A stretch of DNA of 64,000 bases from assembly GCA_036004865.1 (NCBI GenBank), contig DASYQZ010000046.1, positions 11,473 to 75,472 on the forward strand, in the 5' to 3' direction. Source of the stretch: Vicinamibacterales bacterium (GTDB taxonomy: Bacteria; Acidobacteriota; Vicinamibacteria; Vicinamibacterales; CAVVIG01). Position numbers and translations under genes: made by a program. The notes beneath the pieces were generated by a model that was given only the letters and a program-made list of their open reading frames with translations, was not told the DNA's origin and searched no databases. This document shows, piece after piece, positions 665 through 61,480 of the stretch (position 1 is its first letter; each line of letters begins with the position of its first letter).

Positions 665-679
665 TGGCGAGCAACTTGC
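665..679 (+). promoter_or_regulatory. sigma-54-like -24/-12 box (TGGCGAGCAACTTGC)
   Basis: GG-N10-GC geometry with TTGC at -12. There are 14 nt between the -12 C and ATG 694. The -24 half is imperfect (TGGCGA). Confidence 0.35.
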
Positions 680-693
680 TGGCGCTCAGATTG

Positions 694-1611
694 ATGAAGC
701 TCATCGTTCAGCCGGATGCCGGCATCACGCCCGTCGTCACCGCGATCAAGCAGGCGAAGAAGACGATCGACGTCGTGATCTTCCGGCTCGACCGCTACGA
801 AATCGCGCGCGCGCTCGGTGAAGCCGTGGCGCGCGGCGTCCACGTGCGCGCCCTGACGGCGCACCAGAACCGCGGCGGAACGAAGAGTCTGCGCAAGCTC
901 GAGATGCGGTTGCTCGAGGCCGGCGTCACCGTCTCCCGGACGGCCGACGACCTGGTCAGGTATCACGGCAAGATGATGATTGTCGACAGCCGTGTCTTGC
1001 ACGTGTACGGCTTCAATTTCACCAGCCTCGACATCCAGAAGAGCCGCAGCTTCGGCCTCGTCACAAGCAACCCCAAGCTAATCAAGGAAGCGATGAAGCT
1101 CTTCGAGGCCGATTTCGAGCGCCAGCCGTACGTCCCCGGCAGCGACCGGTTCCTCGTCAGCCCCGAGAACGCGCGCGAGGGCCTGGCGAAATTCATCAAA
1201 TCGGCGCGCAGGCAGCTGCTGATTTACGACCCGCAGGTGACCGACGATGCGATGCTGCGGCTGATCACCGAACGGATCAAGGCGGGCGTCGACGTGAAGA
1301 TCATCGGCAAGGTCGAAGCGAAATGGAACATCAAGGGTGAGAAGTATCAGGGCAAGCGCCTGCACATCCGCGCGATGATTCGTGACGGCAAGCGCGCGTT
1401 CGTCGGCAGCCAGAGCCTGCGGCGCCTCGAGCTCGAGAAGCGGCGCGAGGTGGGCGTCGTCATCACCGACGAAAGCGTCATCCGCGACATGCAGGCGATC
1501 TTCGAGAGCGACTGGGCGCAGACCGAGTCGGGACAGAAGAAAGCAAAGAAAGCGAAGAAGGTAGAGAAGAAGGCGCGGAAGGAAGAGAAAGTGCTGGCGA
1601 AAGCGTCGTAA
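694..1611 (+). CDS. Phospholipase D-like (HKD) family protein with Lys-rich C-terminal tail
   Basis: HGKMMIVD matches HxKxxxxD, and a second degenerate motif HIRAMIRD gives two PLD-like halves. The tail is KKAKKAKKVEKKARKEEK. ATG 694 (MKLIVQPD) is preferred over the track start TTG 664. Confidence 0.7.
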   Translation: MKLIVQPDAGITPVVTAIKQAKKTIDVVIFRLDRYEIARALGEAVARGVHVRALTAHQNRGGTKSLRKLEMRLLEAGVTVSRTADDLVRYHGKMMIVDSRVLHVYGFNFTSLDIQKSRSFGLVTSNPKLIKEAMKLFEADFERQPYVPGSDRFLVSPENAREGLAKFIKSARRQLLIYDPQVTDDAMLRLITERIKAGVDVKIIGKVEAKWNIKGEKYQGKRLHIRAMIRDGKRAFVGSQSLRRLELEKRREVGVVITDESVIRDMQAIFESDWAQTESGQKKAKKAKKVEKKARKEEKVLAKAS

Positions 1612-10410: not shown

Positions 10411-10418
10411 CCCTGCGC

Positions 10419-21238: not shown

Positions 21239-23200
<1,962 letters not shown>

Positions 23201-25129: not shown

Positions 25130-26260
25130 TTAGGAAGCTGCCCAGACAGGTTGGTCCGCCGCGACAATGCCGCGGCGGGTGAGCTCGGTGACGTAGACGA
25201 ATTCGAAGGCGGCGACCATGCGGTCGAATGAAAAGCGCGCGCACACGTCGGCGCGGGCCGCATCGCCAAGACGGCTCGCCAGAGGCGGATCGGCCATCAG
25301 CCGGCACAGTCGATCGGCGAGCGACGCCGAATCGCCTGCGGGCGCCAGCAGTCCCGTGCGCTCGTGGTCGATCAGCTCGAGGATGCCGCCGACGCCCGAT
25401 GCGACGATCGGCAGCCCGGACGCCATCGCTTCGAGCACCGCATTCGGGAACGCCTCCGATCGCGACGGCAGGACGAACACATCCGCTTCCGCCAGCTTCG
25501 CCGGCACATCGTCGTGATGCCCGACGAACGTGAAGGCGTGCAGCACGCCGCGCGTCTCGGCGCGCGCCACGAGCGTTTGAAGCTCTGGTCCGCCGCCCAC
25601 GCATTCGAAGTGCGCGTCGGGGAAGCGGCGCAGGACGTCGACGGCCGCGTCGATCAGGACGTCGTGACCTTTTTCGCGCCGGAGGTTCGCGACGCAGACG
25701 ATGTTGCGGAGCCGCGCGGCGGGCCGCCGCGCCTGGAATCGCTGAACGTCGAGACCATTCGGCACGACGGCGATCCTGCGCGGTGGGATGCGCTCGGCGA
25801 TCAGCCGATCGGCTGCCGCGTGAGAGTTCGCGATGATCTTGTGGGCGAAGCTGTAGGCGCCGCGCTGCATGGCGATTTGCGCCGCCGACTTGTCCGGGTT
25901 GATTTCGCGCCGGTTGCCGATTCGCACCGGCACGCCCGCGAGCGCCGCGCCCGGCAATCCGAAGATGTTCGAGTAGAGCTCGGTTGTATGGACAACTGCA
26001 ATGCGCTGCGCGCGGCACCAGTGAGCGAAGGACCAGAGGTGCCGCAGCGTCTTCGGCGAGCTGAAGCTCGTGACCGGAAAGACCGCGACCGATGAGGCGG
26101 CTTCCCGCACGCGTTCGAACCACGCACCGCGAGTGTGAAAGCAGGCGACGTGTACGTCCCAGCGCCTCGGATCGAGACGGCGCACCAGCTCGATCATTTG
26201 GCGCTCGGTTCCACCAGGATCGAAGCTGGTCATCACGATCGCGATCGGGAGCGTGCTCAT
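25130..26260 (-). CDS. Glycosyltransferase family 4 (resembles stp2 type)
   Basis: IAIVMTSFDPGGTERQMIELVRRL and EAFPNAVLEAMASGLPIVAS. ATG 26260 is preferred because ATG 26275 lies inside the sigma-54 box. Confidence 0.8.
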   Translation of the reverse strand: MSTLPIAIVMTSFDPGGTERQMIELVRRLDPRRWDVHVACFHTRGAWFERVREAASSVAVFPVTSFSSPKTLRHLWSFAHWCRAQRIAVVHTTELYSNIFGLPGAALAGVPVRIGNRREINPDKSAAQIAMQRGAYSFAHKIIANSHAAADRLIAERIPPRRIAVVPNGLDVQRFQARRPAARLRNIVCVANLRREKGHDVLIDAAVDVLRRFPDAHFECVGGGPELQTLVARAETRGVLHAFTFVGHHDDVPAKLAEADVFVLPSRSEAFPNAVLEAMASGLPIVASGVGGILELIDHERTGLLAPAGDSASLADRLCRLMADPPLASRLGDAARADVCARFSFDRMVAAFEFVYVTELTRRGIVAADQPVWAAS

Positions 26261-26279
26261 CGGCACGCCAGCCATCTGA

Positions 26280-26294
26280 GCAAGGCAGGTGCCA
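26280..26294 (-). promoter_or_regulatory. sigma-54 promoter, perfect core TGGCACCTGCCTTGC
   Basis: Matches TGGCAC-N5-TTGC on the minus strand, in the 51-nt spacer after the AsnB paralog 3 stop. There are 19 nt from the -12 C to ATG 26260. Confidence 0.6.
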
Positions 26295-26326
26295 GCAGAG
26301 TTCAGGAAAAGCGGCCGTTTTTACCG

Positions 26327-28264
26327 TCAGCGCGACCGTACCGCCGCGCTGGAGGGAACCGCTGGTGCGGAGAGTGGAAAGCGTTTGCTGTCCACATACT
26401 CCTGATGCCAACGCTCGAACACGACGAGTTGCCAGAGGCGCAGCGTGTGGTCGCGCTTGCCCGCGACGTGCTCGTCGACGAGCTGACGGACGAAGAGCGG
26501 CTGGAAGTAGCCGCGCTGCAGGCTCGCCGGCGAGAGCAGCGTGTCGGCGAACAGCTCGCGCAGATTGCCTCTGAACCACGTGCCGAGGGGCACGCCGAAG
26601 CCCTGCTTGCGGCGGTTCAGAATCTCCGGCGGCAGCAGTGTCGCCGCCACCGCTTTCAGCACGTGCTTGCGGCGGCCGTCTTTGATTTTCAGTGAAGCCG
26701 GCAGCGTCGACGCGAGCTCGATGACCTCGTTGTCGAGGAGCGGCACGCGCGATTCGATCGAGTGCGCCATGCTCATGCGATCGACTTTCGTCAGCACGTC
26801 CTCGGGGAGATACGTCTCGGCGTCGAAGCGCATCATCTGACTCGGCCACGGCAGATGCGCGTACCGCTCGAAATGCGACGCGAGCCGCGTCTCGGGATCC
26901 TGACCGTCGAGCCGCTGCCGGACGTCGCCGGCGAGCAGCGCCGGCTTCTCGTCGGCGCTGAAGAAGCGGATCGAGTCGAGATAGCGTCCCTGCTCGTCGC
27001 GCGCGACGTGGCGCAGGAAGTTCTTGCCGCGCGCGCCGTGCGGCAGCTTCGCGGCGGCAATCGCGGCCACGCGGCGAAACGCGCGCGGGCTGTAGCGATC
27101 GAACGCGACGACGCGCGGATGCGGGACGTAGCGATCGTAGCCGCCGAACAGCTCGTCGCCGCCGTCGCCGGAGAGCACGACGGTGACGTGCCGGCGCGCC
27201 ATCTCGGAGACGTACCACGTCGGGATCGCGGACGAATCGGCGAACGGCTCGTCGAAATGCCAGACGAGGCGATCGAGGATGGCGACGCCGTCCGGCTTCA
27301 CCACGAACTCGTGATGATCGGTGCCGAAGTGCCGCGCGACGCGCCGCGCGTGCTCGAGCTCGTCGAACGCCGGCTCGTCGAAGCCGATGGAGAACGTCTT
27401 CACGCGCGCGCCCGACGTCTCGGTCATCAGCCCGACGACGAGGCTCGAATCGATGCCGCCCGAGAGAAACGCGCCGAGCGGCACGTCGCTGACCAGGTGC
27501 GATCGCACGGCGTCCGCCAGCACCTGCCGCAGATCGCGGATCGCGTCGGCCTCCGATCCGGTGTACGTCTCGGCGGCCGGGAGCTGCCAGTACCGCTCGA
27601 TCGCGAGGTGGCCGTCGTGCCAGGTCATCAGATGTCCGGGCGGCAGTTTCCGGACGCTCTTGAAGATGGATCCGTCGCGAGGCGTGTACAGGAACGACAG
27701 GTAATGGTCGAGCGCGTCGAGATCGAGATCGCGCGGCAGATCCGGCGCCTCGAGCAGCGACTTCAGCTCCGAGCCGAAGTACAGGCGGCCGTTTTCTTCC
27801 GCGTAGTAGATCGGCTTGATGCCGATGCGATCGCGCGCGACGAGCAGCGATTTCGACCGGTCGTCCCAGATCGCCAGGCCGAACATCCCGCGCAGCCGCG
27901 CGATCGCGTTCGCGCCCCACTGCTCGTAGGCGTGCACGATGACTTCGGTGTCCGTGGCCGTGTAGAAGCGGTGCCCCTCCGCCTCGAGCCGGGCGCGGAG
28001 CTCGCGGAAATTGTAGATCTCGCCGTTGAACACGATCCAGATCGTGCGGTCCTCGTTGTGAATCGGCTGGTGGCCGGTCGACAGATCGATGATGCTCAGG
28101 CGCCGCATCCCGAGCGCGACGCCTTCGGCGACGAACATACCCTCATCGTCCGGACCGCGATGCCGGATGACGTCGCACATGCGATGAATCAGATCGTGCG
28201 CCTCGTCGGGGCCGAACGGAGCGTGCGCGCCGGAAGACTCTACGAAACCTGCGATACCGCACAT
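26327..28264 (-). CDS. Asparagine synthase-like amidotransferase, paralog 3
   Basis: MCGIAGFV, RRLSIIDLSTGHQP and SGGIDSS. Confidence 0.9.
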   Translation of the reverse strand: MCGIAGFVESSGAHAPFGPDEAHDLIHRMCDVIRHRGPDDEGMFVAEGVALGMRRLSIIDLSTGHQPIHNEDRTIWIVFNGEIYNFRELRARLEAEGHRFYTATDTEVIVHAYEQWGANAIARLRGMFGLAIWDDRSKSLLVARDRIGIKPIYYAEENGRLYFGSELKSLLEAPDLPRDLDLDALDHYLSFLYTPRDGSIFKSVRKLPPGHLMTWHDGHLAIERYWQLPAAETYTGSEADAIRDLRQVLADAVRSHLVSDVPLGAFLSGGIDSSLVVGLMTETSGARVKTFSIGFDEPAFDELEHARRVARHFGTDHHEFVVKPDGVAILDRLVWHFDEPFADSSAIPTWYVSEMARRHVTVVLSGDGGDELFGGYDRYVPHPRVVAFDRYSPRAFRRVAAIAAAKLPHGARGKNFLRHVARDEQGRYLDSIRFFSADEKPALLAGDVRQRLDGQDPETRLASHFERYAHLPWPSQMMRFDAETYLPEDVLTKVDRMSMAHSIESRVPLLDNEVIELASTLPASLKIKDGRRKHVLKAVAATLLPPEILNRRKQGFGVPLGTWFRGNLRELFADTLLSPASLQRGYFQPLFVRQLVDEHVAGKRDHTLRLWQLVVFERWHQEYVDSKRFPLSAPAVPSSAAVRSR

Positions 28265-30528
28265 ACATAGTCCTTGGTCGTTGGTCGTGGGTCGTGGGTC
28301 CGACGGCGAAACAGCTTGCGAACGTCTGATTCGGCAAACGCCACGTCGTCTATCGAACGCGCGCGAGTGATGCGGAGCGTGGTGTCGGCGAGCCATGCCA
28401 CGTCGGAGATTGGATTCGCGGCGTCGAGGCCGAACACGGTCGCGATCGAGAACGGCCCGTCCGCCTCGCGCCTCACGCGTACGGTGGTGGTCGGCTCCAC
28501 GCGTCCGTAGGCGGGCGAATACCAGCCGAGGCCGGACGGCTCGCCGTGGAAGACCTCGACGACGCCCTCCGGAACGATGAGCGACACGGCACAAGGCGTT
28601 GAGCGCGAAGAACCCTTCTTCAACGAGCACGTGACACGCCGTCCGCTGACGTCGACGATCCACCGCGGATCGAAATGCCAGTGGACGGCCGCCGCGTGCC
28701 GGCCTTCCGCGTCGACGAAATCGGCGACCACGAGCAGATCGCCATGTCGCGCGAGAACGCGGCGGCGATGCTCGATCGGCGCGTAACCGTCGTGCGCGCC
28801 GTCGAAATAGTCGAAGCCGTCGACATTTTCGACATTGTCCCCAGGCGCCCACCGATTCATGCGCGCCCGGGCGATATGCGTCCAGTGAAACGGCCCGTTC
28901 GGCACCGACTGCGAGCGGCCGTCAACGGTCAGCGTGTTGTGCATCGCCGAGGAACGCAGGCGATCGCGCAGCTCGGGGTCGGTCGTGTAGGAGGCGGTGC
29001 CGGGATCGATCAGCAGCGGAACGCCGCGCATCGTGAAGGTGAGCGACAAGGCATCTGCGTGCGCGTGGCCGCCGTTCTGATACCCGTGAGGGCCCGCGTC
29101 GATGACGAGATGATCGCCGTTGGTCGATCGCGAGACGTAGTAGCCGGTCTCGGGCAGAGCGTTCGAAGGAATGTGGAATTCGGAATTTGGAATTTGGAAT
29201 GCGTTCTCGGCGCCGAACCAAAGTGTCTCTTCGGCGGCTCCGCCAGTCTGGAGATCGGGCCGGTTGAGCAGCGCCGCCGCGATGGCGAGGCTGTCGCGGG
29301 CATCGTCCGGCTCCCGGCCCGTGAGCGGCAGCAGCGCGCCGCCATCGTCGTCGCCGAAATGCGGCAGACGCCCGGCGTCATCCGCGAGCAATCGCGCGGC
29401 CGATGACAGACGGCCGGCCGCGCGCTCGAAGTCGGCGGCCATCGAATCGCCGGTCGCGCGCGCGACGGCGAGCGCGAGGAGATAGAAATCGAGCGCGTAG
29501 CGATGGTAATGCGCCGAGCGCTCACAGTGACCGCCGTCCGCGGCGATTTGCCGATCCATCTCCACCGCGAGAATGCGCCGGCCGGTCGCGGCGCGGCGCG
29601 CGCTGGCCGCGAGCTCAGGGAGCGCGCACCCCGCGACGTACAGCGCGAGCGCTTCCCCGAGCAGATGCGTGTTCGGGCTGAAGTAGTACGAAAGATTCCG
29701 CTCGACGTGTGCGAGCTGACGATCGAGGCCGAGCAGCAGATCGACCGTCCACGGGTGGTCGTCGGCCACCTCGGGCTCGACGAAGAACTGCAGCGCCCAC
29801 AGCCACGAGAGCGATCGAAAGGCGAGCTCGAGCATGCTCGCCCAGTTGATGCCGGTCAGCGGCGGGTTCGCCTGCATCCAGCTCGTGAGCTCGGCGATGA
29901 CGCGCGCGCGGTACTTCGCATCGCCGGTCAGCCAGTACGCGCGGCCAAGCGAAAGCCAGTGCTGATGCCGATTGAGCTCCCAGATGATCTTGTGATCGCC
30001 GCACACCGGATCCAGGTAAGGGATGGAGGACCAGAACGCCTGCGGAGCGCGGCGGTCGTGGACGGGATCTCTGTGCCAGTCTGGTAGGTCCGGTAGGCCT
30101 GCCAGGACGGGTGGGGCTGGTGGGGCAAAACGCAGACCTCGATAACCCAGCAGGTCGTACTCGCCGGCGAGGATTCGATTGGCGCGGACGGAGGCGTCGT
30201 GTGCGCTGTCCGGAAATTCGCCGCGGATGCGATCGGCGAGCGCATCTTTCATCGCTCGACGGATCACGAAACGCTGTGGCGTCGAGATCGTTGCGAAGTG
30301 ACGCGAGAGCTCGCGGTGCGCATCGCGCCATCGTCCGGCGGCGAGTGCCGTCCGCACAGCGGCAAGCTCGGGAAGCGGCGCGAGCGCCGCATGCAGGTCG
30401 TACCGGTCCCAACGCGGAGGAGTGACGGCGGCTCGCATGCGATCGCCGGCGATTCGCGCCGCGGCAGCGCCGCGCCACGCCAGTTCCGCGCGATCCATGC
30501 GCGCGACCCGCGACAGGAGGCGGCGCAT
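28240..30528 (-). CDS. Heparinase II/III-like family protein (no signal peptide)
   Basis: GDHKIIWELNRHQHW and GHAHADALS motifs. About 762 aa. ATG 30528 (MRRLLSRV) is preferred. It carries two in-frame heptamer arrays. Confidence 0.75.
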   Translation of the reverse strand: MRRLLSRVARMDRAELAWRGAAAARIAGDRMRAAVTPPRWDRYDLHAALAPLPELAAVRTALAAGRWRDAHRELSRHFATISTPQRFVIRRAMKDALADRIRGEFPDSAHDASVRANRILAGEYDLLGYRGLRFAPPAPPVLAGLPDLPDWHRDPVHDRRAPQAFWSSIPYLDPVCGDHKIIWELNRHQHWLSLGRAYWLTGDAKYRARVIAELTSWMQANPPLTGINWASMLELAFRSLSWLWALQFFVEPEVADDHPWTVDLLLGLDRQLAHVERNLSYYFSPNTHLLGEALALYVAGCALPELAASARRAATGRRILAVEMDRQIAADGGHCERSAHYHRYALDFYLLALAVARATGDSMAADFERAAGRLSSAARLLADDAGRLPHFGDDDGGALLPLTGREPDDARDSLAIAAALLNRPDLQTGGAAEETLWFGAENAFQIPNSEFHIPSNALPETGYYVSRSTNGDHLVIDAGPHGYQNGGHAHADALSLTFTMRGVPLLIDPGTASYTTDPELRDRLRSSAMHNTLTVDGRSQSVPNGPFHWTHIARARMNRWAPGDNVENVDGFDYFDGAHDGYAPIEHRRRVLARHGDLLVVADFVDAEGRHAAAVHWHFDPRWIVDVSGRRVTCSLKKGSSRSTPCAVSLIVPEGVVEVFHGEPSGLGWYSPAYGRVEPTTTVRVRREADGPFSIATVFGLDAANPISDVAWLADTTLRITRARSIDDVAFAESDVRKLFRRRTHDPRPTTKDYVCAVSQVS
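28274..28301. repeat. Half-array of heptamers (TTGGTCG TTGGTCG TGGGTCG TGGGTCC)
   Basis: Direct repeats only, with no partner arm. Located in the overlap between the heparinase-like 3' end and the region just upstream of the AsnB paralog 3 start. Confidence 0.7.
29168..29202. repeat. Half-array of heptamers (GGAATGT GGAATTC GGAATTT GGAATTT GGAATGC) inside the CDS
   Basis: Five direct 7-nt units read as FQIPNSEFHIPSN on the minus strand, within the heparinase-like ORF. Confidence 0.8.
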
Positions 30529-30536
30529 AAGCAAAA

Positions 30537-31721
30537 TCAGCTCTCCACCACAGAGGACACGGAGGACACGGAGGTTAAATCGGTTTTGTCCTCCGCGTCC
30601 TCCGTGTCCTCTGCGGTGGAGATGTCGCGGATATCCGCACTCGAACCAAGCACGTCGCGATATGCCGCTAACCACTGCTCCCGGACCGACGACCACGTGC
30701 ACGATTGCACACGCGCGCATGCCGCGCGGATGAGACGGTCGGCGTACGGCTGGTCATCGAGCAATCGCAGGACGTGCGCGGCGAGGCGCTCGTGATCGTT
30801 GAGCGGTGCGAGCAGTCCGCGCTCGCCGTGCGTGAGAATCGCCGGTACGCCTCCGGCTTCGGTCGAGACCACCGGCAGGCCGCTCGCGAACGCCTCGAGC
30901 ACGGAGGTCGGCATGTTGTCGATGTTCGGCGACTGAACGTAGATGTCGTTGGCGGCGTAGTAGTCCGCGATCCGATCCGGCGGCACGCGGCCGGTGAACT
31001 CGACCCCCGTCACACCCAGCTCGGTGACGAGGGCGCGGAGTGCGGCCTCCTCACTGCCGGCGCCCACCAGTGTCAGCGTCGCGTGGGGATGCCGATCCTG
31101 CACGAGCCGGAACGCGCGAATCGTGCAGGCGACGTTGTAGAGCTCGTCGAAGTTTCTCGTCGAAACCAGCCGCGGGCGAAGCGGGGCGCGCGCGCGAAAC
31201 GCGAATCGATCGAGGTCCACGATGTTCGGGATGACGCTGGCCTGGATGCCGAATTCGCGGAACACGTCGACCAGGAACTGCGACGGGACGATGTTCGCGT
31301 CGGCCTCGGCGACGGTCTTCCGCGCGATGGCCGATCGGCTGAGGTGATCGGGCGCCTCGCCGCTCCGGTAGTTCAGGATGACCGGCTTGCCCAGCGCCCG
31401 GCCGATGAGCATGGCCGGCAGCGGGGCGAGCAGATACGAGGCGTACGACGCGGAGAACACGTGCACGACGTCCGCGCGTGCGAGCTCGCGCACCAGCAGC
31501 GGCAGGTAGGTGAGCTCGTTGATCACCGTGCGCAGGTACTTGATGCCGAGCGCGAACCGCAGGCCCCTGGGCGGTAGAGGATTCACGGGCACGAGCCACG
31601 CGTCGACGTCCGGATCGTTCTCCCATGCCCGCAGCAATCGATCCGCCTGCACGGCCTGCCCGCCAAGAATCCGCAGCGAGGGCGCCACCACCGCGACCTT
31701 CAATCGCCGTCCGCCATCCAT
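30537..31721 (-). CDS. Glycosyltransferase family 4
   Basis: KVAVVAPSLRILGGQAV and NMPTSVLEAFASGLPVVSTEAGG. ATG 31721 is preferred. The C-terminal tail (STAEDTEDAEDKTDLTSVSSVSSVVES) is encoded by a palindromic element. Confidence 0.8.
   Translation of the reverse strand: MDGGRRLKVAVVAPSLRILGGQAVQADRLLRAWENDPDVDAWLVPVNPLPPRGLRFALGIKYLRTVINELTYLPLLVRELARADVVHVFSASYASYLLAPLPAMLIGRALGKPVILNYRSGEAPDHLSRSAIARKTVAEADANIVPSQFLVDVFREFGIQASVIPNIVDLDRFAFRARAPLRPRLVSTRNFDELYNVACTIRAFRLVQDRHPHATLTLVGAGSEEAALRALVTELGVTGVEFTGRVPPDRIADYYAANDIYVQSPNIDNMPTSVLEAFASGLPVVSTEAGGVPAILTHGERGLLAPLNDHERLAAHVLRLLDDQPYADRLIRAACARVQSCTWSSVREQWLAAYRDVLGSSADIRDISTAEDTEDAEDKTDLTSVSSVSSVVES
30543..30621. repeat. Palindromic periodic-unit element, GGAGGACAC (9-nt) family
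   Basis: The arms CTCCACCACAGAGGACACGGAGGACACGGAGG and CCTCCGCGTCCTCCGTGTCCTCTGCGGTGGAG are near reverse complements. It lies inside the 3' end of ORF 30537-31721. Confidence 0.85.
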
Positions 31722-31735
31722 CGATCCACCATTAC

Positions 31736-31750
31736 GCAAGAGCCGCGCCG
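31736..31750 (-). promoter_or_regulatory. sigma-54-like box CGGCGCGGCTCTTGC
   Basis: GG-N10-GC with TTGC at -12. There are 14 nt to ATG 31721. The -24 half is weak. Confidence 0.35.
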
Positions 31751-31998
31751 CAGCTCGTGTGTGTCGTCTGTCAAGACAGTTTTCTGCCGCGCTCACACCT
31801 GATTGATCGCAGTGTTTCTGATCACGACGCGACCGTTTCGGCACTCCAGCTTGAATCGGCTATTTTCCGAGCGAATTTGCATGCCCGCTCAAGCACCGTG
31901 TAGAAGAGGTCGAACGGCCGAGTCCGCATTCGCAACGCAGCGATCGCTTCGATCTGAACATCTCGAGAATTCCTCGGATTTCCAGCCAATGCCGGGAT

Positions 31999-32013
31999 TG
32001 GTCACGGCTTTGC
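31999..32013 (+). promoter_or_regulatory. sigma-54-like box TGGTCACGGCTTTGC
   Basis: GG-N10-GC with TTGC at -12. There are 52 nt to ATG 32066, which has a GGAGG Shine-Dalgarno sequence. Confidence 0.45.
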
Positions 32014-32065
32014 CCTGACGCGCGCGGTTCCCTACAACTGATCAAACGGCTGACCTGGAGGCTCA

Positions 32066-33490
32066 ATGCGGAAGGACGTGTCTCGTGTGTGCGCTCGCGC
32101 GATGTTCGGAGTGGTTGTGTTCGCGGCGTCGGTGTCGGCGGTGGCCGCCCAGACGACGGTCACGTTGAACCAATCGAGGCCGCAGGTGGTTTACGCGACG
32201 CTTCGCGCCGGAGCGTATGCCAACACGAACTATCCGACCGTGCTGACGACGCGCGCAGCCGACACGGCCGACAACCACCGCCGAGCGCTCCTGAAGTTCG
32301 ACACGCAGAACACGATTCCCGCCGGGAGCGCTGTCACCTCCGCGCTGCTGACGGTGACGGTCAAGAGCGGTGGCGCGACGACGCCACGAACCATCGGTGC
32401 CTATCAGGTCACGACTTCGTGGGCCGAGACCGAGACAACCTGGAACCGCCGCCGCACGACCGCCGAATGGATGACCCACGGCGGCGATCTCGGCTCGCTC
32501 ATCGCCCAGTGGGACGTCTCGAACGTCGCCGGCACCAAGGTGACCTTCGACGTCACGCCGCTGGTCAAACAGGCCGTCTCCGGCGCGCTCGGCAGCTCGC
32601 GCTACACGCGCATGGCGCTCGTCGATCTCGATCCGGCGAGTGGCGATTCGACGCGGAATTTCTACACGCCCGATGAATCGAACTCGGCGCTGCGCCCGAC
32701 ACTGAAAGTCGTCTACGGCGGGACGACGACGACCGCTGGAAGCACGACGACGCTGCGCGTGCTCGACTGGAACACGCATCATGGTGGCGTCGGCACCGAT
32801 GGCAAGCTCGACGCGGATCGCCTCATCAAGAAGGCGGCGAGCTTCAAACCCGACATCGTGTCGTTCAACGAAGTGGAGCGCTATACCGGCTGGGGAAATT
32901 ACGACGGACCTGCGGTCATGGCTGCCCTGATGAAGAAGTACACCGGTCTGACCTGGTACTACAAGTTCGCGACCGCCACCGGCGCGGCTACGGGCAACGG
33001 CAACCTGATCCTTTCGCGCTTTCCGTTCGCTGCGACCGACGTTCAACTGCTCAGCCACAATCGGTCCGCCGTGAACGCCACGATCAACGTCAACGGCCGG
33101 TCGATCAACTTCTTCTCGACACATCTCGACGCCGATTCGACGAGCTACAGGCTGCAGGAGATCGGAGAGCTGACCTCGTGGGCGAAAGGCATTGCGGAGC
33201 AACGCATCATCGCCGGCGATTTCAACGCGTGGCCCGGGTCGACCGAGAACAAGACAATGACGATCACCTACGTCGACTCGTGGGCGCAGGCGCAGACCGA
33301 CGGCACGGCGGTCGCGTATTCCGCCAACACCGCGGGCAACACGCGCAACAGCCGCATCGACTACATCTACTACTCGAAGGGCGCGACGGCCCTGAAGCTC
33401 GTGTCGTCGCAAGTGTTCGACGTCCGCGACGCGAACGGCGTGATGCCGTCGGATCACCGTCCGGTGCTGTCCGTCTTCACGGTGAAATAA
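32066..33490 (+). CDS. Secreted DNRLRE-like domain plus endonuclease/exonuclease/phosphatase (EEP) family protein
   Basis: Signal peptide, then DNHRRALLKFD...TSWAETETTWNRR. The EEP motifs are LRVLDWNTHHG, SFNEVE and SDHRPVLSVF. Confidence 0.75.
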   Translation: MRKDVSRVCARAMFGVVVFAASVSAVAAQTTVTLNQSRPQVVYATLRAGAYANTNYPTVLTTRAADTADNHRRALLKFDTQNTIPAGSAVTSALLTVTVKSGGATTPRTIGAYQVTTSWAETETTWNRRRTTAEWMTHGGDLGSLIAQWDVSNVAGTKVTFDVTPLVKQAVSGALGSSRYTRMALVDLDPASGDSTRNFYTPDESNSALRPTLKVVYGGTTTTAGSTTTLRVLDWNTHHGGVGTDGKLDADRLIKKAASFKPDIVSFNEVERYTGWGNYDGPAVMAALMKKYTGLTWYYKFATATGAATGNGNLILSRFPFAATDVQLLSHNRSAVNATINVNGRSINFFSTHLDADSTSYRLQEIGELTSWAKGIAEQRIIAGDFNAWPGSTENKTMTITYVDSWAQAQTDGTAVAYSANTAGNTRNSRIDYIYYSKGATALKLVSSQVFDVRDANGVMPSDHRPVLSVFTVK

Positions 33491-33499
33491 GTCAGGACT

Positions 33500-33581
33500 C
33501 ACGACGTTCAACGCAGCACTCGCAGAAACCGCAGAGCCAACTTTTTCTGCGAGTTCTGCGAGTTCTGCGTTGCATGTCGTG
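33500..33581. repeat. Palindromic periodic-unit element, CGCAGAA(n) family, copy 2
   Basis: CACGACGTTCAACGCAGCACTCGCAGAAACCGCAGAG ... CTGCGAGTTCTGCGAGTTCTGCGTTGCATGTCGTG, between convergent stops 33490 and 33583. Confidence 0.85.
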
Positions 33582-33582
33582 T

Positions 33583-36192
33583 TCAGGATCCCGGGTTCTC
33601 AGTCAGGATCGTCGCGTCGTTCTGACGAGGACCCGGCGGCGTGCTCAGATACGTGTTCGGGCTGAGCACGATTTGATCGACGATGGCGCCGTCCTCGCGT
33701 TGCTGAATCCGCAGCGTGTGCGTCCCTGTCGCGGCGAAGAACACGTCGACGCCGGCCGCGCCCCATCCATTGTCGGCCCAGCCCCAACCCTGATCCGCCG
33801 TACCGCTCGGACCATTCTGCAGGATGACCTCCGCGGAGCTCGTGGATCCGATCTGCATGGTCGACCCGCCGGATGAATTGACCGAGTCGCTGAACTGCAC
33901 GTGCACCGAGTCGTTCGAGAACGAATCGTTCTGCGCGCGCAATCGCACCCAGAGGTGATACGGGATGCCGGCGGTGGCGCTGAACGTCAGCTCGACGTAG
34001 CTCGCCGGATTCGCGATCGCGGGTGAAATCTTCGGCTGCGCCGCATCGGGATTCCAGGTGGCTGATCCGCTCGCGGCGGACGCGTCCGTCAGCAGTTGCC
34101 ACGCCGTGCCGACCATGCCCGACGGCGGCGCATGCGCCGTCCACAGGACGATCGTCGGATCGCCCGGCGGTGGAGGCGGCGGGGGCGGGGGTGGCGGCGG
34201 CGAGCTCGATCCGTCGTTCTCGGGCAAGATCGTCGAATCGTTGTCGCGCGGCCCCGGCGCGTTCGAGAGGTACGTGTCGGGACTCAGGACGATCTCGTCG
34301 ACGATCGCGCCGTCCTCGCGTTGCTGCACGCGAACCGTCTGCTCGCCGTCGGCAGCAAAGTAGATGTTCGAGCCGGGCGCGCCCCATCCGTTGTCCGCCC
34401 ATCCCCATCCGTTGTCCGATGGATCGCTCGTACCGTTCTGCAGCACGACCTCGGCCGAGCTCGTCGTGCCGATGCGCCACGTCGCCGTGCCGAGCGAGTC
34501 TACCGATCCGCTGAACTGGAGATGGACCGAGTCGTTGCCGAGCGAGTTGCTCTGCGCGCGCAGACGCACCCACACGTGATACGCGACACCGTGGAACGCG
34601 ACGAACGTCCGCTCGAAGTAATTCGTGGGATTCGCCAGCGCGGGCGAAATCTTCGATTGCCCCTGGTCTGGATTGTGGAGCGCGGCGCCGCCGGATGCGC
34701 TCGCGTCGGAGAGCAGCATCCAGTTGCCGTGCAGGTTGCCGGCCGACGTGTTCGACGACCAGAGAACGATCGTCGTCGCGCCCGACGGCGGCGGTGGCGG
34801 CGGCGGCGGCTCGCCGGTGGTGGTGAAGCTCCAGATGTCGCCGGTCTTCGTGAGGTTCGCGGCGGTTCGCGACACGATCTTCCAGTAGTACGTCGCACCC
34901 GACGTCAGCGTGGGCAGCGCGAAGGTCTGATTCTCCGACGTCGTTTCGCTGGGCCCGAGCGGCTGATTCGCCGCGAAGAGCGGCGGATTGGGATTGGTGC
35001 CGAAGTAAATGTCGTACGTGTGCGCCCACGGTCCGCCGGACCACGTCAGGGTCTGCCCGGTGGTCGGGACGCCGACCGCGCCGTTCGCGATCGAGATGTT
35101 CGACGGCTTGTCGGGCGGCAGCGGCACGAACGGCTGCGATTCGACGAAGCCGCCCGGCGCCGTGTTGTTCCACTTCCGCTCGAACTGATCCACGAACCAG
35201 GTGAAGATCCAGCTCTTGGTCGTGAAGTAGTTGTGCTCCTGCTGAGAGTTCGCCGACGGCGACGTCCAGTTCGACGACCCGAAGATCGTGAGGCCTTGCG
35301 AGTAGAGCAGAACCACCTTCTCGTGATTCTGGCCGTCGCTGGCGCGTACCCGCATCGGGATGCCGGCCGCGTACATCCGATCCATGTTCCACGAGACCCA
35401 GAGCCGATCGACGTCGCGGTACTCGACGGTCTCGCCCAGGTAGCGGACCGGAATGCCGCGCGCCTGGGCCGCAATCATCGCGTCGCTGTGCCGCTTGTCG
35501 GTGATGCGGTACATGATCACGTCGATCTTCTGCGTCTCGGCGTTGTATTTCTTCACCGCGCGGGTCGCGTAGTCCTGCCCCGGCGGGAAATTCATGTCGG
35601 CGCTGATCGTGAACGTCGGATAGACGCGCACGCGCGAGGTGACGTTCGCGTACGGGCTGTAGTTGACCGTGTCGGTCCACAGATCGTCGAATTTGGTCTT
35701 GAAGCTGTCGACGATCGCCGGATCGTCCTCGAAGAAAATCGTCTCCGACACGTAATTGCTGTACGGCGCGACGGGCACGAATGCGTTGTCGCTGTAGTTG
35801 GCCGATCCGAACTCGACGACGTTCTGGCCGGCGAACAGCATCGTCTTCCAGTGCATGATGCCGCCGGCGGTCTTCTTCATCATCGGAATGCCGGCGTTCT
35901 GCAACTCGTTGAGGCTCGTGGCATTCAACGGATACGTCGGATTGGCTCTCGGGTCGACGATGAGCCGCACGGGGACGCCGGCCCGCTTGCGCGCGATGAG
36001 CTCGTTGACGTAGCGCTGGTCCTCCATGAACCAGAAGCCGACGTCGATGCCGGCGGTTTCGGCGCGGATGAGATTGATGAGCGGCGTCCGGCAATCCTGG
36101 AACGATGAATCGCAGAGGCTTTCCGCGGCGTGTGCAGGCGCCGCGACGGCCAACACGAACGCGAAAACAATCGATAAATTGAGCTTTTGCAC
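33583..36192 (-). CDS. Secreted PLD-like (two HKD) enzyme with an Fn3-like domain and two tandem C-terminal modules of about 195 aa
   Basis: Signal peptide MQKLNLSIVFAFVLAVAAPAHA. HKD-like motifs HWKTMLF and HEKVVLLYS..GSSNW. YYWKI..WSFTT is Fn3-like. Two poly-Pro linkers are each followed by a homologous module (..WVRLRAQ..NDSVH.QFS..GWGWADNGWGA..QQREDGAIVD.IVLSP). Confidence 0.75.
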   Translation of the reverse strand: MQKLNLSIVFAFVLAVAAPAHAAESLCDSSFQDCRTPLINLIRAETAGIDVGFWFMEDQRYVNELIARKRAGVPVRLIVDPRANPTYPLNATSLNELQNAGIPMMKKTAGGIMHWKTMLFAGQNVVEFGSANYSDNAFVPVAPYSNYVSETIFFEDDPAIVDSFKTKFDDLWTDTVNYSPYANVTSRVRVYPTFTISADMNFPPGQDYATRAVKKYNAETQKIDVIMYRITDKRHSDAMIAAQARGIPVRYLGETVEYRDVDRLWVSWNMDRMYAAGIPMRVRASDGQNHEKVVLLYSQGLTIFGSSNWTSPSANSQQEHNYFTTKSWIFTWFVDQFERKWNNTAPGGFVESQPFVPLPPDKPSNISIANGAVGVPTTGQTLTWSGGPWAHTYDIYFGTNPNPPLFAANQPLGPSETTSENQTFALPTLTSGATYYWKIVSRTAANLTKTGDIWSFTTTGEPPPPPPPPSGATTIVLWSSNTSAGNLHGNWMLLSDASASGGAALHNPDQGQSKISPALANPTNYFERTFVAFHGVAYHVWVRLRAQSNSLGNDSVHLQFSGSVDSLGTATWRIGTTSSAEVVLQNGTSDPSDNGWGWADNGWGAPGSNIYFAADGEQTVRVQQREDGAIVDEIVLSPDTYLSNAPGPRDNDSTILPENDGSSSPPPPPPPPPPPPGDPTIVLWTAHAPPSGMVGTAWQLLTDASAASGSATWNPDAAQPKISPAIANPASYVELTFSATAGIPYHLWVRLRAQNDSFSNDSVHVQFSDSVNSSGGSTMQIGSTSSAEVILQNGPSGTADQGWGWADNGWGAAGVDVFFAATGTHTLRIQQREDGAIVDQIVLSPNTYLSTPPGPRQNDATILTENPGS

Positions 36193-36204
36193 GCTGTCGG
36201 GATT

Positions 36205-36219
36205 GCCAGATGAGTGCCA
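36205..36219 (-). promoter_or_regulatory. sigma-54-like box TGGCACTCATCTGGC
   Basis: The -24 half is a perfect TGGCAC. The -12 half is TGGC, one mismatch from TTGC. There are 12 nt to GTG 36192. Confidence 0.35.
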
Positions 36220-36336
36220 CGGATTCGCGTGGCGCGCGAAACCGTGAGGCGTCAGATGCTTGCGACGAGTGAGAAAACGGTGTGACAGACGAGCGCGGAA
36301 ACGTATTTCCGCTTCTGGGTTGTTGCGCGGCCCAGA

Positions 36337-37374
36337 TTAGGTCGGCGCATAAGGCCCGAGGTTGACTTTTATTTCAGATTGCAACGGGCTCGACCGATGA
36401 GCCCGGCTGCCGCGCGCATACCCGGCGAAATAGCAGAGCATGGCTTCGTGACGCATGCGGCGCACGGCGTCGCGCGCCAGCCACGCGCTCAGCCAGCCGG
36501 ACAGGTCGCGGATCGCGGAGCCGACCATGAAGCGCGGCACGCCGGCGATTCGCGGCACGGTCGCCAGGTCGACGCCGAGCTCGGTGACCGGATGATGCCG
36601 ATCGAGCCGCGATCGCGCCACGCCTTTCCAGTACCACCACCTTCGAAAATAGTCGCGCGTCAGCCGCCGCGCGGGCACGTGGTGGTGCAGCGACATCCCG
36701 GGCACGTAGAGTCCGCGAGCGCCGATCGCGCGCGAACGGCAGAAGAACTCTGCCTGCTCCTGCCCGAGCAGGGAATTGCCGCGGCGGCCCAGCCCGGGAT
36801 CGAAACCGCCGATGCGATCGATCAGCTCGCGCCGCACCGCCATGTTCGCCCCAAGCGGGACGCGGCGGCGATCCTCGAACACGAACGGCTCGGGCCCGTA
36901 ATCCAGAATCGCGAGCGTGCCCCAGAGATCCGAGCGCGTTTCATCAAGCCAGGGCGGACATGGCCGTTCCCAGATCGGGCGAACTGGTCCGCCTGTGTAG
37001 TCGACACTCGCGTCGCCGGTCGCCGCCAGCATCGGCCGGCAGCCCGCTTCCAGCCAGTCCTCGTTCACGCGCACATCGTCGTCGGTGAACACGATGATCG
37101 CCGCGTCGCTTTCCGCGATCCCGGTGTTCAGCGCGTGCGACTTGCCCTGACGCGGCTCGAACACATACCGGAGCTCGACCGGATACCCGGCGATGCGCGA
37201 TTTGACGACGGCGGCCGTGTGATCCGTCGAGTTGTTGTCGACAACGATGACGTTCCAGCGCAAGCCGCCGCTGGTGCGGCTGAGCGCGAGGCTGTCGAGC
37301 GTCTCCGCGAGGAGATCGCCGCGGTTATAGGTGCAAATCAGGACGGTCGCGTCAAGCGGTCGAGCTACGGACAT
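36337..37374 (-). CDS. Glycosyltransferase family 2 (paralog a)
   Basis: VLICTYNRGDLL, VVDNNSTD and FTDDDV. About 45 percent identical by eye to 38213-39208. ATG 37374 is preferred over 37419. Confidence 0.8.
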   Translation of the reverse strand: MSVARPLDATVLICTYNRGDLLAETLDSLALSRTSGGLRWNVIVVDNNSTDHTAAVVKSRIAGYPVELRYVFEPRQGKSHALNTGIAESDAAIIVFTDDDVRVNEDWLEAGCRPMLAATGDASVDYTGGPVRPIWERPCPPWLDETRSDLWGTLAILDYGPEPFVFEDRRRVPLGANMAVRRELIDRIGGFDPGLGRRGNSLLGQEQAEFFCRSRAIGARGLYVPGMSLHHHVPARRLTRDYFRRWWYWKGVARSRLDRHHPVTELGVDLATVPRIAGVPRFMVGSAIRDLSGWLSAWLARDAVRRMRHEAMLCYFAGYARGSRAHRSSPLQSEIKVNLGPYAPT

Positions 37375-37389
37375 CGGCTGAGTAACGTT

Positions 37390-37404
37390 GCAAACGGCCT
37401 GCCT
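37390..37404 (-). promoter_or_regulatory. sigma-54-like box AGGCAGGCCGTTTGC
   Basis: GG-N10-GC with TTTGCA at -12. There are 15 nt to ATG 37374. The -24 half is imperfect. Confidence 0.35.
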
Positions 37405-37551: not shown

Positions 37552-37938
37552 CTACCAGACGCGCTTCACGCCGTACTTTTCGAAGAGCGGATCGGCAGAG
37601 ACGACCGTCAGCTCCCGTTCGAGTGCCTGTGCGGCCATCATTCGGTCGAACGGGTCGCGGTGATGAAACGGCATCTTCTCGACGCGGGCGAGATCGCCGA
37701 AACCGACTGGCAGCAATTCGATACGGTTGGCCGGGAGGTGTTCCTGGATGAAGCGACCAATCGGGAGGGGCAACTTGAGACTGCCGATCGAGCTCTTGAT
37801 CGCCATTTCCCAAGCGGCGGCGATGCTCAGGAACTGATCGTATTCGGCCTTGGCGAGGACTCGACGGGCCGATGCGGGCAGTCGCTTGTCATCGTTGAGC
37901 CACCAGAGTGCGGCATGGGTATCCAGCAACAGTCGCAC
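37552..37938 (-). CDS. vapC: Type II toxin, PIN-domain VapC family
   Basis: MRLLLDTHAALWW N-terminus, 128 aa, acidic PIN residues. It immediately follows the antitoxin gene. Confidence 0.85.
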   Translation of the reverse strand: MRLLLDTHAALWWLNDDKRLPASARRVLAKAEYDQFLSIAAAWEMAIKSSIGSLKLPLPIGRFIQEHLPANRIELLPVGFGDLARVEKMPFHHRDPFDRMMAAQALERELTVVSADPLFEKYGVKRVW

Positions 37939-38166
37939 TCACATGTACTCCTTAAAATCCTCCAGGGATTCGTCGAAATCGTCTGACATCCAGATTTGAC
38001 CCTTGGCGGAGCCAGGTTTTCGTGGCTGCTTCTTCCTATCCTGATACGGGACGAGCTTGAGCAGCGGCTTGTGATGGCGAGCGATGATCACTTCCTCGCC
38101 GGCCATCGCTTTGTCCACGAGCTCCGAGAACTTCGTTTTGGCCTGGGCGATATTGTATCGAGCCAT
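37939..38166 (-). CDS. Type II antitoxin, Phd/YefM-like
   Basis: 75 aa, MARYNIAQAKTKFSELVDKAMAGEEVIIARHHKPLLKLVP. Its stop abuts the vapC start. Confidence 0.75.
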   Translation of the reverse strand: MARYNIAQAKTKFSELVDKAMAGEEVIIARHHKPLLKLVPYQDRKKQPRKPGSAKGQIWMSDDFDESLEDFKEYM

Positions 38167-38212
38167 ATGGTCATTTTAGATGACCATCCTGGCGGGACGC
38201 AACCGACGCCGA

Positions 38213-48170: not shown

Positions 48171-49010
48171 TTACTCGCCGGCTGCGCGAGGCAACGCGGC
48201 AACGTCGCCGGCGAGGGGCGGACACGCGGGTCCGCCCCTACCAAACAGCGCGTTGTCTGCGACTCTTGTAGGGGCCGACCCACGTGTCGGCCCTTCGAAT
48301 TCCTCGATCGCGGGCAAGACGTCGTGGATCGCGCGCTCGTAATCCTCGGGGAAGTCAATTTCCGTCCAGGGATATCCGCGCGTGCCAATCACGTGCAGCG
48401 GCCGCCGCTGCGCGAAGTCGCCGAACGCTCTCGGCGCCCAGTCCCGCAGGTGGCCGCCGGCGACCCGCTCGTCCAGCAGCCGGCTCAGCAGCCGGGCGCC
48501 GTCGCCGCCGAACTTGACGATGCCGAGGTTCTCGCCGTCGGTGTCCTCGGGCGCGAGCGTCTTCGCGATGTCGACGACGCAGCCGCGCCGGACTTTGATC
48601 TTCATTTCCTCATCCGTGAACGGGCCGTCGCTGTACGCCATCAGCAGCGCGTCGGCGTGCCGCGCGGTCACCAGGTCCTCGAGCAGCTGCGGATGGAAGA
48701 GCACGTCACAGTTCATCACGACGAAACCGTCGAGCAGCAGAGGCCGTGCCAGCCAGAGCGAATACAGACTGTTCGTCTGCGCGAACCGCGTGTTCTCGAC
48801 GTAGGTGAGCCCGTGCCCACACGTGCGCCGTACGCGCTCGGCCTGGCAGCCGACGACGACGGCGATGTCGTCGATGCCTACCGCGCGCAAGGAATCGATT
48901 TGCCGTTCCACCAAGGTGCGATCGCCGACACGCAGCAGGCATTTGGGCTTGTCGCCAAGCGTCCCGTTCAAGCGCGACCCTTTGCCCGCCGCGAGAATGA
49001 TCCCGCGCAT
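48171..49010 (-). CDS. Nucleotidyltransferase (LicC/MobA-like, probable cytidylyltransferase)
   Basis: GIILAAGKGSRL signature with a GGAGG Shine-Dalgarno sequence. The last 45 aa or so run through two REP-like hairpins. Confidence 0.7.
   Translation of the reverse strand: MRGIILAAGKGSRLNGTLGDKPKCLLRVGDRTLVERQIDSLRAVGIDDIAVVVGCQAERVRRTCGHGLTYVENTRFAQTNSLYSLWLARPLLLDGFVVMNCDVLFHPQLLEDLVTARHADALLMAYSDGPFTDEEMKIKVRRGCVVDIAKTLAPEDTDGENLGIVKFGGDGARLLSRLLDERVAGGHLRDWAPRAFGDFAQRRPLHVIGTRGYPWTEIDFPEDYERAIHDVLPAIEEFEGPTRGSAPTRVADNALFGRGGPACPPLAGDVAALPRAAGE
48214..48239. repeat. REP-like hairpin (GTAGGGGCGGACCCGCGTGTCCGCCCC on the minus strand)
   Basis: The stem AGGGGCGGAC / GTCCGCCCCT has a 6-nt loop. 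It is inverted relative to the 48271-48293 copy. Confidence 0.7.
48271..48293. repeat. REP-like hairpin (GTAGGGGCCGACCCACGTGTCGGCCC on the plus strand)
   Basis: Stem GGGGCCGAC / GTCGGCCC. It pairs with 48214-48239 as an inverted doublet. Confidence 0.7.
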
Positions 49011-57103: not shown

Positions 57104-58672
<1,569 letters not shown>

Positions 58673-58685
58673 GCGGGCCTGTTGA

Positions 58686-58700
58686 GCAATGCCAGTGCCA
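58686..58700 (-). promoter_or_regulatory. sigma-54 promoter, perfect core TGGCACTGGCATTGC
   Basis: Matches TGGCAC-N5-TTGC on the minus strand. There are 13 nt from the -12 C to GTG 58672 and 16 nt to ATG 58669. Confidence 0.6.
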
Positions 58701-58866: not shown

Positions 58867-60378
<1,512 letters not shown>

Positions 60379-61107: not shown

Positions 61108-61480
61108 AGGGAACCCGGCGTCGGCGGATGAGCTGCTTCCGCGTCGCCGACCAGCGCACGCGCCTCGATACATCTCATCGGCGGAGCGCGCACGGTTGAG
61201 CGTAGCACAACGGCGGTGCGCCACCCGCGGCGTCGCCAACTTGTGAAAACTCGTTCCGCGCAATGCCTCGCGCCGGCCGCCGCCACGGCGGCGGCGGCGG
61301 CGCGTACGGGGCACGAACTCGCGTCTTTTTCATTGAGATCTGCGCGGCGCGCGCATGCGCGTGGCCAATCGACCACCGTGGCATCTTGCTTGTAAATCTG
61401 TTCGTGAGCGGGCGATACGGTCGACCTGACGATCGTCCGCGGAGCACGAATCCAGGTCGTCGTGGTTAGAGTGCGGGGAA

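Follow-up and report, generated by a model that had tools for sequence, protein, structure and literature searches.

We analysed a 64,000-nucleotide stretch of DNA (hereafter the window; positions 11,473 to 75,472 of contig DASYQZ010000046.1) from a 102-kb JGI soil metagenome contig of the Vicinamibacterales (Acidobacteriota), in which six boxes resembling the −24/−12 promoter element of sigma-54 (RpoN) lie directly ahead of start codons. Family-model matches point to an XrtA/PEP-CTERM-like exopolysaccharide locus on the minus strand between about 17 and 61 kb, which encodes a priming transferase, an XrtA-associated ATPase, an export protein, a chain-length determinant, a tyrosine kinase and several glycosyltransferases; boxes 1, 3 and 5 lie inside its long co-directional gene array, in which the gaps are short. 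The initial annotation of this DNA had proposed that the six genes are transcribed from sigma-54 promoters into leaderless or near-leaderless mRNAs, and the comparisons described below favour this proposal. The boxes, scored in bits with a sigma-54 weight matrix, and the genes that follow them are listed here.

Box 1, 26280..26294, minus strand: TGGCACCTGCCTTGC, a perfect −24/−12 box, 16.3 bits, located past an AsnB-like amidotransferase gene in an intergenic gap of 60 nt
Gene after box 1, 25130..26266, minus strand: GT4 glycosyltransferase, TIGR03088-like by best match but below the cut-off; probable start GTG 26266, 14 nt past the −12 C
Box 2, 58686..58700, minus strand: TGGCACTGGCATTGC, a perfect sigma-54 box, 17.6 bits, between the two activator genes
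Gene after box 2, 57104..58672, minus strand: RR2, an NtrC-type sigma-54 activator with a receiver domain and an AAA+ domain bearing GAFTGA; GTG 58672 lies 14 nt past the −12 C
Box 3, 37390..37404, minus strand: AGGCAGGCCGTTTGC, 13.7 bits, 15 nt ahead of ATG 37374
Gene after box 3, 36337..37374, minus strand: GT2 glycosyltransferase, 345 aa, with the same start in the public gene call
Box 4, 31736..31750, minus strand: CGGCGCGGCTCTTGC, weak, 5.9 bits, 14 nt ahead of ATG 31721
Gene after box 4, 30537..31721, minus strand: GT4 glycosyltransferase, 394 aa in the public gene call
Box 5, 36205..36219, minus strand: TGGCACTCATCTGGC, 13.0 bits, with TGGC as its −12 half, 12 nt ahead of GTG 36192
Gene after box 5, 33583..36192, minus strand: secreted PLD-like protein with a GH115_C domain, 869 aa, signal peptide MQKLNLSIVFAFVLAVAAPAHA
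Box 6, 665..679, plus strand: TGGCGAGCAACTTGC, 11.9 bits, 14 nt ahead of ATG 694
Gene after box 6, 694..1611, plus strand: PLD-like protein, 305 aa, outside the polysaccharide array

Read directly from the sequence, all six boxes lie where they had been annotated, with the gaps to the named start codons as given. The description of the boxes holds in part: boxes 1 and 2 are indeed perfect, but the mismatches are not confined to the −24 half, as box 5 deviates in its −12 half (TGGC for TTGC). Likewise, the reported gaps of 12–19 nt stand as read, except that the 19-nt value of box 1 refers to ATG 26260, whereas the likely start is GTG 26266, with a gap of 13 nt. When d is counted from the −12 C to the base at which the start codon begins, all six sites have d = 13–16 once this GTG is used.

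The same protein type recurs behind the boxes: two of the six box-adjacent genes, at 33583-36192 (minus strand) and 694-1611 (plus strand), encode PLD-like (PLDc_2) proteins, the larger of which additionally bears a signal peptide and, at its C-terminus, a GH115 domain. Three tandem paralogues of AsnB-like amidotransferases of the XrtA/PEP-CTERM type (TIGR03108-like) are encoded at 21239-23179, 23203-25128 and 26327-c.28250 (minus strand), and box 1 follows the third immediately. Directly upstream of box 3, within the polysaccharide array, is a PhdYeFM antitoxin/PIN toxin pair (37552-38166, minus strand), which occupies the same place in the near-identical contigs L001-L005.

Occurrence of the boxes compared with chance

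In the boxes, exactly 10 nt separate the GG from the GC doublet of the TGGCAC-N5-TTGCW consensus, as the sequence definition of a sigma-54 promoter demands. The bare GG-N10-GC geometry was rejected as evidence, with 1146 matches in the window and 1145 expected. The strict pattern TGGCACNNNNNTTGC matched twice against an expectation of 0.09, a count reached in none of 100 shuffles, and matrix matches in the window numbered 2 at 16 bits or more (0.09 expected), 5 at 13 bits or more (1.25 expected) and 7 at 11.8 bits or more (2.7 expected). Five of the six top matrix matches (58686, 26280, 37390, 36205 and 679) are intergenic, face the next gene and have d = 13–16.

Two further assignments were considered and rejected. 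Box 4 might have been read as a sigma-70 promoter, with TTGACA upstream and CGTAAT over the −12 half; these elements would lie some 32 nt apart, and the orthologues do not conserve the TAAT. A seventh promoter might have been placed at 48737-48751 (minus strand; TGGCACGGCCTCTGC, 15.5 bits), but this site lies inside an NTP-transferase ORF (open reading frame; 48171-49010). It is conserved in at least seven related loci, in each case 96 codons or more into the ORF, and its translation reads LARPL, then VVMNCDVLF. Because the site is intragenic in every locus and encodes the conserved LARPL peptide, the simplest reading is that it is probably a coding coincidence, an internal sigma-54 site being possible.

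Conservation of box and start codon in related loci

When species-representative genomes were searched with the RR2 protein, 79 loci emerged, nearly all titled Vicinamibacterales or Acidobacteriota. Together with 77 loci around orthologues of the box-5 protein (44–93% identity) and the window itself, they form a comparative set of 157 sources and 2.04 Mb, in which the loci are phylogenetically related, some of them coming from related species, and the counts are thus not independent events. Boxes of at least 8 bits were tallied in the orthologous loci, together with in-frame starts.

Box 2, ahead of RR2: box in 55 of 55 orthologous loci; in-frame, stop-free start at d = 12–17 in 33 (30 GTG and 3 ATG, mostly at d = 13–15)
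Box 5, ahead of the secreted PLD-like protein: box in 40 of 56; in-frame start at d = 12–17 in 35 (23 GTG and 12 ATG)
Box 3, ahead of the GT2 glycosyltransferase: box in 25 of 33; in-frame start at d = 12–17 in 23
Box 1, ahead of the GT4 glycosyltransferase: box in 7 of 7 (window included), of the form TGGCAY-N5-TTGCT; in-frame start in all 7, always GTG, at d = 13–15
Box 4, ahead of the second GT4 glycosyltransferase: box in 10 of 13, of the form CGGC[GT]TG-N4-TTTGCA; in-frame start at d = 12–17 in 5 and at d = 18–19 in 5 more

Box 5 took the form TGGCAY-N5-T[GCA]GCA with a start at d = 13–17 in 35 of the 40 box-bearing loci, and box 3 the form [AG]GGCA[AG]-N5-TTGCA with a start at d = 14–17 in 23 of 25. 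Over the five families of boxes 1–5, an open, in-frame start was present at d = 12–17 in 103 loci, as against 7 loci in which the only codon at this distance was out of frame. The nucleotides between box and start drift from one orthologue to the next while the distance is kept. Since all seven box-1 loci have a GTG at d = 13–15, the start in the window was placed at GTG 26266 rather than at ATG 26260, which removes the 19-nt outlier.

The distance from box to start was also plotted without reference to these families, using matrix matches of at least 12 bits over the whole set. With the true spacing, 249 matches were obtained, 100 of which had the start of a coding ORF at d = 12–17. Decoy matrices in which the half-sites were shifted one or two bases closer or apart (spacers N2, N3, N5 and N6) gave 52–73 matches in the same 2.04 Mb, with such a start at 0–1 of them. 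The 100 short-distance sites fall into 11 protein families, two of which, an NTP-transferase family (of the 48737 type) and a flippase-like family with d = 15, were discounted as internal to longer ORFs. With d taken up to the earliest usable start in the coding ORF that follows, the distribution was bimodal, with 100 sites at 12–17 nt (mode 14–15), 13 at 18–23, none at 24–35 and 43 at 36–100. Thus, the enrichment at short distances that the initial annotation had predicted for a genome-wide scan appeared, across these related loci rather than one whole genome, as a sharp peak at 13–15 nt that was lost with the wrong-spacer decoys.

Assignment of the translation starts

These distances have meaning only if the start codons are correctly assigned. 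If the boxes were real sigma-54 promoters and the starts were misplaced, translation would begin at a downstream in-frame codon behind an ordinary leader. High-GC ORFs do hold many alternative starts, and some of the RR2 orthologues that are extended at the N-terminus by a long stretch contain a further ATG immediately ahead of the conserved NGKPQVMVVDDD, in places preceded by a weak GGA or GGGA; several RR2 orthologues, however, lack any such internal ATG. The box-5 ORF has no start codon before GTG 36192, which opens its signal peptide, and the N-terminal strands of the box-1 and box-3 glycosyltransferases begin a few residues past the called starts, indicating that these enzymes would lose their first beta-strand if begun downstream. 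The box-proximal position is held by GTG in some orthologues and by ATG in others (for example, L012 versus L013), and a start at d = 13–17 is in frame and open in 103 loci, compared with 7 in which it is out of frame only. Upstream in-frame starts are absent in many loci, and elsewhere the extension that they would add is of inconsistent length (2–316 codons). Public gene calls agree with the annotated start codons of three genes (345, 869 and 394 aa). Given these observations of frame and protein structure, misplaced starts are an improbable explanation, and the comparison points to the box-proximal codon as the probable true translation start.

Consistent with what had been noted for the box-adjacent genes, the Shine-Dalgarno (SD) motifs GGAG, GAGG and AGGA are absent from all six box-to-start spacers. 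Other window genes carry them, and the GGAGG sites cited at 13533, 32066, 48158 and 49010 are all present.

Leaderless translation is plausible in this lineage. Over the 2.04 Mb, TANNNT shows an excess at exactly 6 nt ahead of the first start codons of coding ORFs (17 occurrences versus about 3 at other offsets), a spacing published as the mark of leaderless genes of the sigma-70 type (PMC3160421). Within the window, sigma-70-type −10 hexamers precede start codons by 6–7 nt without an SD site, as in classical leaderless genes, at 2707-2712 (minus strand; TATAAT, 7 nt before TTG 2699), 38173-38178 (minus strand; TAAAAT, 6 nt before ATG 38166) and 10406-10411 (plus strand; TATAAC, before GTG 10419). 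In Campylobacter jejuni, the motif GGaa-N6-tTGCTt ends 8–13 nt before mapped sigma-54 starts (PMC3847290), so that a start 13–15 nt past the −12 C is within the observed range. A pyrimidine immediately precedes the start codon at 64 of 70 sites from three families, compared with 61% in the window gene map, a bias that fits a pyrimidine-purine transcription start site, weakly in view of the C-rich genome.

Orthologues with longer leaders and other possible roles of the boxes

The same box also occurs at a greater distance from the start. Among the 55 RR2 orthologues, 22 keep the box with the first usable start at d = 21–77 (d of at least 43 in 19 of them). In 18 of these 22, the start is preceded by an SD-like site, for instance GGAAGGA directly ahead of the ATG. 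The only orthologue found for the box-6 gene (L017, 71% identity) has an identical 16-nt box (the 15-mer and the next base, T) at d = 69, with GGAG before its GTG. In a neighbour-joining tree of RR2, the short and long states segregate largely by clade, and at least five changes of state are seen; for instance, L036 and L037 are short and their near relatives L040 and L057 are long. Because the box is kept at both distances, the motif appears to act without regard to how far away the start codon is, in the manner of a promoter, which speaks against a translation signal.

A different role for sigma-54 is conceivable, in which the holoenzyme binds the boxes without productive initiation and, held in stable closed complexes beside the start codons, acts as a roadblock or occluder that modulates read-through from upstream genes, the mRNAs being polycistronic and leadered. 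Binding of sigma-54 that is non-productive and binding that is intragenic are both known from enterobacteria. The position of boxes 1, 3 and 5 in a co-directional array and the conserved intragenic site at 48737 would suit such a role, but boxes 2 and 6 follow contexts outside the array, a roadblock would not need a fixed distance of 13–15 nt to an in-frame start, and the genes lack the SD sites normally used in polycistronic translation. In addition, the leadered orthologues keep the box 40–80 nt upstream of the start, as expected of a promoter. We accordingly give this possibility little weight.

The conserved 16-mer could alternatively act in RNA, as an SD-independent translation signal or as a site for a protein or small RNA on read-through transcripts. 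Although the constant distance to the start and the lack of SD sites are what such a signal would produce, both halves and their exact spacing fit the sigma-54 consensus, decoys with other spacers show neither enrichment nor placement, the motif is also conserved 40–80 nt upstream of SD-led starts, and two sigma-54 activators are encoded alongside; we consider an RNA-level function very unlikely. Chance matches in GC-rich DNA, which the count of bare doublets, the chance-level score of box 4 and the modest excess at 11.8 bits might suggest, are hardly tenable as a general explanation and are already refuted for boxes 1, 2, 3 and 5, given that perfect sites exceed expectation more than 20-fold, five of the six top matches are placed highly non-randomly, the boxes are conserved across species and the decoys give no comparable signal.

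Activators encoded at the locus and a model of expression

As the initial annotation had stated, the locus encodes two sigma-54 activators, RR1 and RR2, both with GAFTGA at residue 226; RR2 is listed above with box 2.

RR1, 58867..60378, minus strand: second NtrC-type sigma-54 activator, with GAFTGA and an ordinary GGAG SD site before TTG 60378

A histidine kinase gene (60385-61314) precedes RR1, and the kinase and the tandem RR1 and RR2 genes lie at the upstream end of the locus. An exact-protein look-up gave no record for RR1, and the GT2 protein behind box 3 led to the source contig. Both regulators match the NtrC, AtoC and PEP_resp_reg models. Against TIGR02915, with a cut-off of 502.6, they score 407.8 and 377.1 bits, and the AtoC and NtrC models score higher; as the activators fall under the curated PrsR cut-off, we do not class the locus as a PrsR regulon. 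Downstream of the RR1 stop, at 58740-58866 (minus strand) and likewise in L007-L062, a conserved GAAnTTTCCTTCC block lies about 80–150 nt upstream of box 2, and a hairpin after the stop varies in sequence while its pairing is often kept (for example, CGCGTCTTCAGC...GCTGAAGACGCG in L014). The block and hairpin could be an RR1 terminator or an activator site. Directly downstream of RR2 is a 159-aa ORF (56610-57089, minus strand) with a weak, partial GGDEF match (PF00990, 24.4 bits). It may encode a diguanylate cyclase, truncated or degenerate, that is co-transcribed with RR2.

We judge it likely that the boxes are genuine sigma-54 promoters placed so that the start codon lies 13–16 nt past the −12 C, giving near-leaderless mRNAs. 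Cross-locus conservation, the preponderance of in-frame starts, the distance peak and the SD-bearing orthologues with long leaders all support the reading first proposed for this DNA, with the near-leaderless state following from promoter geometry. We infer the positions of the transcription starts, the pairing of activators with boxes and the mechanism of translation as follows. Sigma-54 RNA polymerase would bind each box as a closed complex, which an NtrC-type enhancer-binding protein would open through ATP hydrolysis; the candidates are RR1, RR2 or both, once the neighbouring histidine kinase has phosphorylated them. Transcription would begin at the GTG or ATG itself or 1–4 nt before it. 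As this leaves no room for an SD site, translation would have to use the leaderless route, with the ribosome and initiator tRNA recognising the 5′-terminal start codon. RR2 stands behind such a promoter of its own, which suggests positive autoregulation, and RR2 is probably autoregulated. At boxes 1, 3 and 5, read-through mRNAs would present the SD-less starts internally, and the activator-dependent transcript may be the main translatable form.

Several points weigh against this interpretation. The leaders of 0–4 nt are predictions from promoter geometry. The canonical distance from the −12 C to the sigma-54 transcription start is 12 nt, which would give leaders of 1–4 nt rather than 0. GTG is a poor leaderless start in Escherichia coli, and the short-distance starts are mostly GTG; moreover, a 2010 study by Krishnan et al. 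reportedly found that a few extra 5′ nucleotides lower leaderless translation in that species. Because boxes 1, 3 and 5 lie in a co-directional array, upstream read-through transcripts must exist. By sequence alone, box 4 is at chance level (87 matches at 5.5 bits or more, 84 expected), so that its support comes from its position and its conservation in 10 of 13 orthologous loci, and box 6 is backed by a single orthologue. The short state of RR2 belongs mostly to one clade, and descent from common ancestors means that the counts overstate the number of independent events. No shared activator-binding motif was detected in the 200 nt upstream of the six boxes (k = 8–10, both orientations). The rpoN gene is not in the 64-kb window, although no search was aimed at it and whole genomes were not scanned; its presence is implied by the GAFTGA activators. 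Finally, the weight matrix is only an approximation of the compilation of Barrios et al. 1999.

Comparison with known systems

In canonical sigma-54 promoters such as glnAp2, nifH and pspA, the TGGCAC-N5-TTGCW consensus, the GG-N10-GC spacing and the nearby GAFTGA activators are as in the window, and the box is likewise kept whatever the length of the leader. Their leaders, however, are long enough for an SD site, whereas the boxes described here leave 0–4 nt.

A parallel in gene content is the PEP-CTERM/PrsR-PrsK-PrsT cis-regulatory region of Proteobacteria (PMC1569441), which similarly has sigma-54 motifs before XrtA/PEP-CTERM-type exopolysaccharide genes and NtrC-like response regulators. 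Haft et al. 2006 (PMC1569441) reported that, in Proteobacteria, the distance from motif end to start averages 71 nt (minimum 23), that the sites precede PEP-CTERM protein genes and that the motifs are found only in Proteobacteria. The window sites instead precede glycosyltransferase, PLD-like and regulator genes at 12–15 nt, and the one site ahead of a PEP-CTERM-like ORF is the weak one at 61379-61394, at a distance of 88 nt. The 'motif 1' of that study, which contains TTTACA and precedes the sigma-54 motif by about 63 nt, was not found upstream of the six boxes. Matches to the XrtA system itself were mixed: TIGR03013 is above its cut-off (491 versus 393) and TIGR03015 is at its cut-off (322.6 versus 324.5), whereas TIGR03027, TIGR03007, TIGR03018, TIGR03108, TIGR03087 and TIGR03088 are best matches yet below cut-off. 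No exosortase gene was identified within the 64-kb window.

The sigma-70-type leaderless mRNAs of Actinobacteria and Deinococcus-Thermus (PMC3160421, PMC12340547) share with our sites a fixed short distance from element to start, the lack of an SD site and the use of both GTG and ATG. The promoter class differs, as the boxes in the window are of the enhancer-dependent sigma-54 type, which is unrelated to sigma-70. Surveys of leaderless genes seek only −10-like signals, a limitation stated in PMC3160421. Leaderless genes behind sigma-54 promoters would therefore have been missed. To our knowledge, Actinobacteria and Deinococcus-Thermus, which are famed for leaderless genes, largely lack sigma-54. 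A precedent for the leaderless state beyond the housekeeping sigma factor is the Streptomyces gene whiH, which is transcribed from a sigma-WhiG promoter (cited in PMC3160421), yet sigma-WhiG is an alternative factor of the sigma-70 family, unlike sigma-54. In a limited literature search, sigma-54-driven leaderless mRNAs were not described in PMC3616915, PMC5243855, PMC12754779, PMC3847290, PMC4842269, PMC12403871 or PMC12340547.

With somewhat less confidence than for the boxes of the window, we lean towards a broader proposal: that the Vicinamibacterales (Acidobacteriota subdivision 6) routinely fuse sigma-54 promoters to start codons, giving activator-gated, leaderless and often GUG-initiated mRNAs, an arrangement not described for sigma-54 in the papers examined, and that orthologues have repeatedly switched to or from an SD-led leader while keeping the box. 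Sigma-54 promoters and leaderless mRNAs are each well known and are usually treated separately; if the proposal is correct, leaderless expression would be independent of promoter class, and GUG-initiated leaderless translation would work in Acidobacteria. In an operon-like array, only the activator-dependent transcript would have a translatable 5′-terminal start, which would couple transcriptional gating to translatability. The loci would also offer a natural system for the position of the sigma-54 start relative to the −12 element, the distance of 14–15 nt predicting a start 2–3 nt beyond the textbook 12, and the leadered and leaderless orthologue pairs would be a natural experiment on the cost and benefit of a leader. 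Start codons and regulons could then be annotated better in an abundant, poorly cultured soil phylum.

Additional features of the window

The same locus contains a leadered counter-example, in which the ATG of a PEP-CTERM-like ORF is preceded by GGGGA.

Sigma-54-like box, 61379..61394, plus strand: TGGCATCTTGCTTGTA, with GT in place of the −12 GC, 11.8 bits, 88 nt before ATG 61481
Small PEP-CTERM-like ORF, 61481-61789, plus strand: signal-anchor N-terminus, then VPDS, a hydrophobic stretch and an RRA C-terminus; PF07589 at E = 0.085, below threshold

At the position equivalent to 61379, many loci have TGGCAC-N5-TTGAA sites in which the −12 GC is replaced by GA or GT, about 17 or about 80 nt from the ATG.

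Many intergenic gaps hold paired tandem arrays of heptamers in inverted orientation, for example (ATTGCGG)x4 followed some tens of bases on by (AATCCGC)x4; other pairs are AAGTCTG/TCAGACT and ATTGCTG/CAATCTG. The arrays lie at the following positions.

Heptamer array pair, 16746-16776/16891-16921
Heptamer array pair, 19961-19991/20034-20064
Heptamer array pair, 52040-52070/52124-52154
Heptamer array pair, 53164-53194/53214-53270
Heptamer array pair, 63485-63515/63646-63676
Heptamer array pair, 17711-17739/17764-17792
Heptamer array pair, 12219-12279/12289-12327
Heptamer array, 61790-61821

These arrays could form long hairpins of 7-nt repeats and are possible terminators or REP-like elements.

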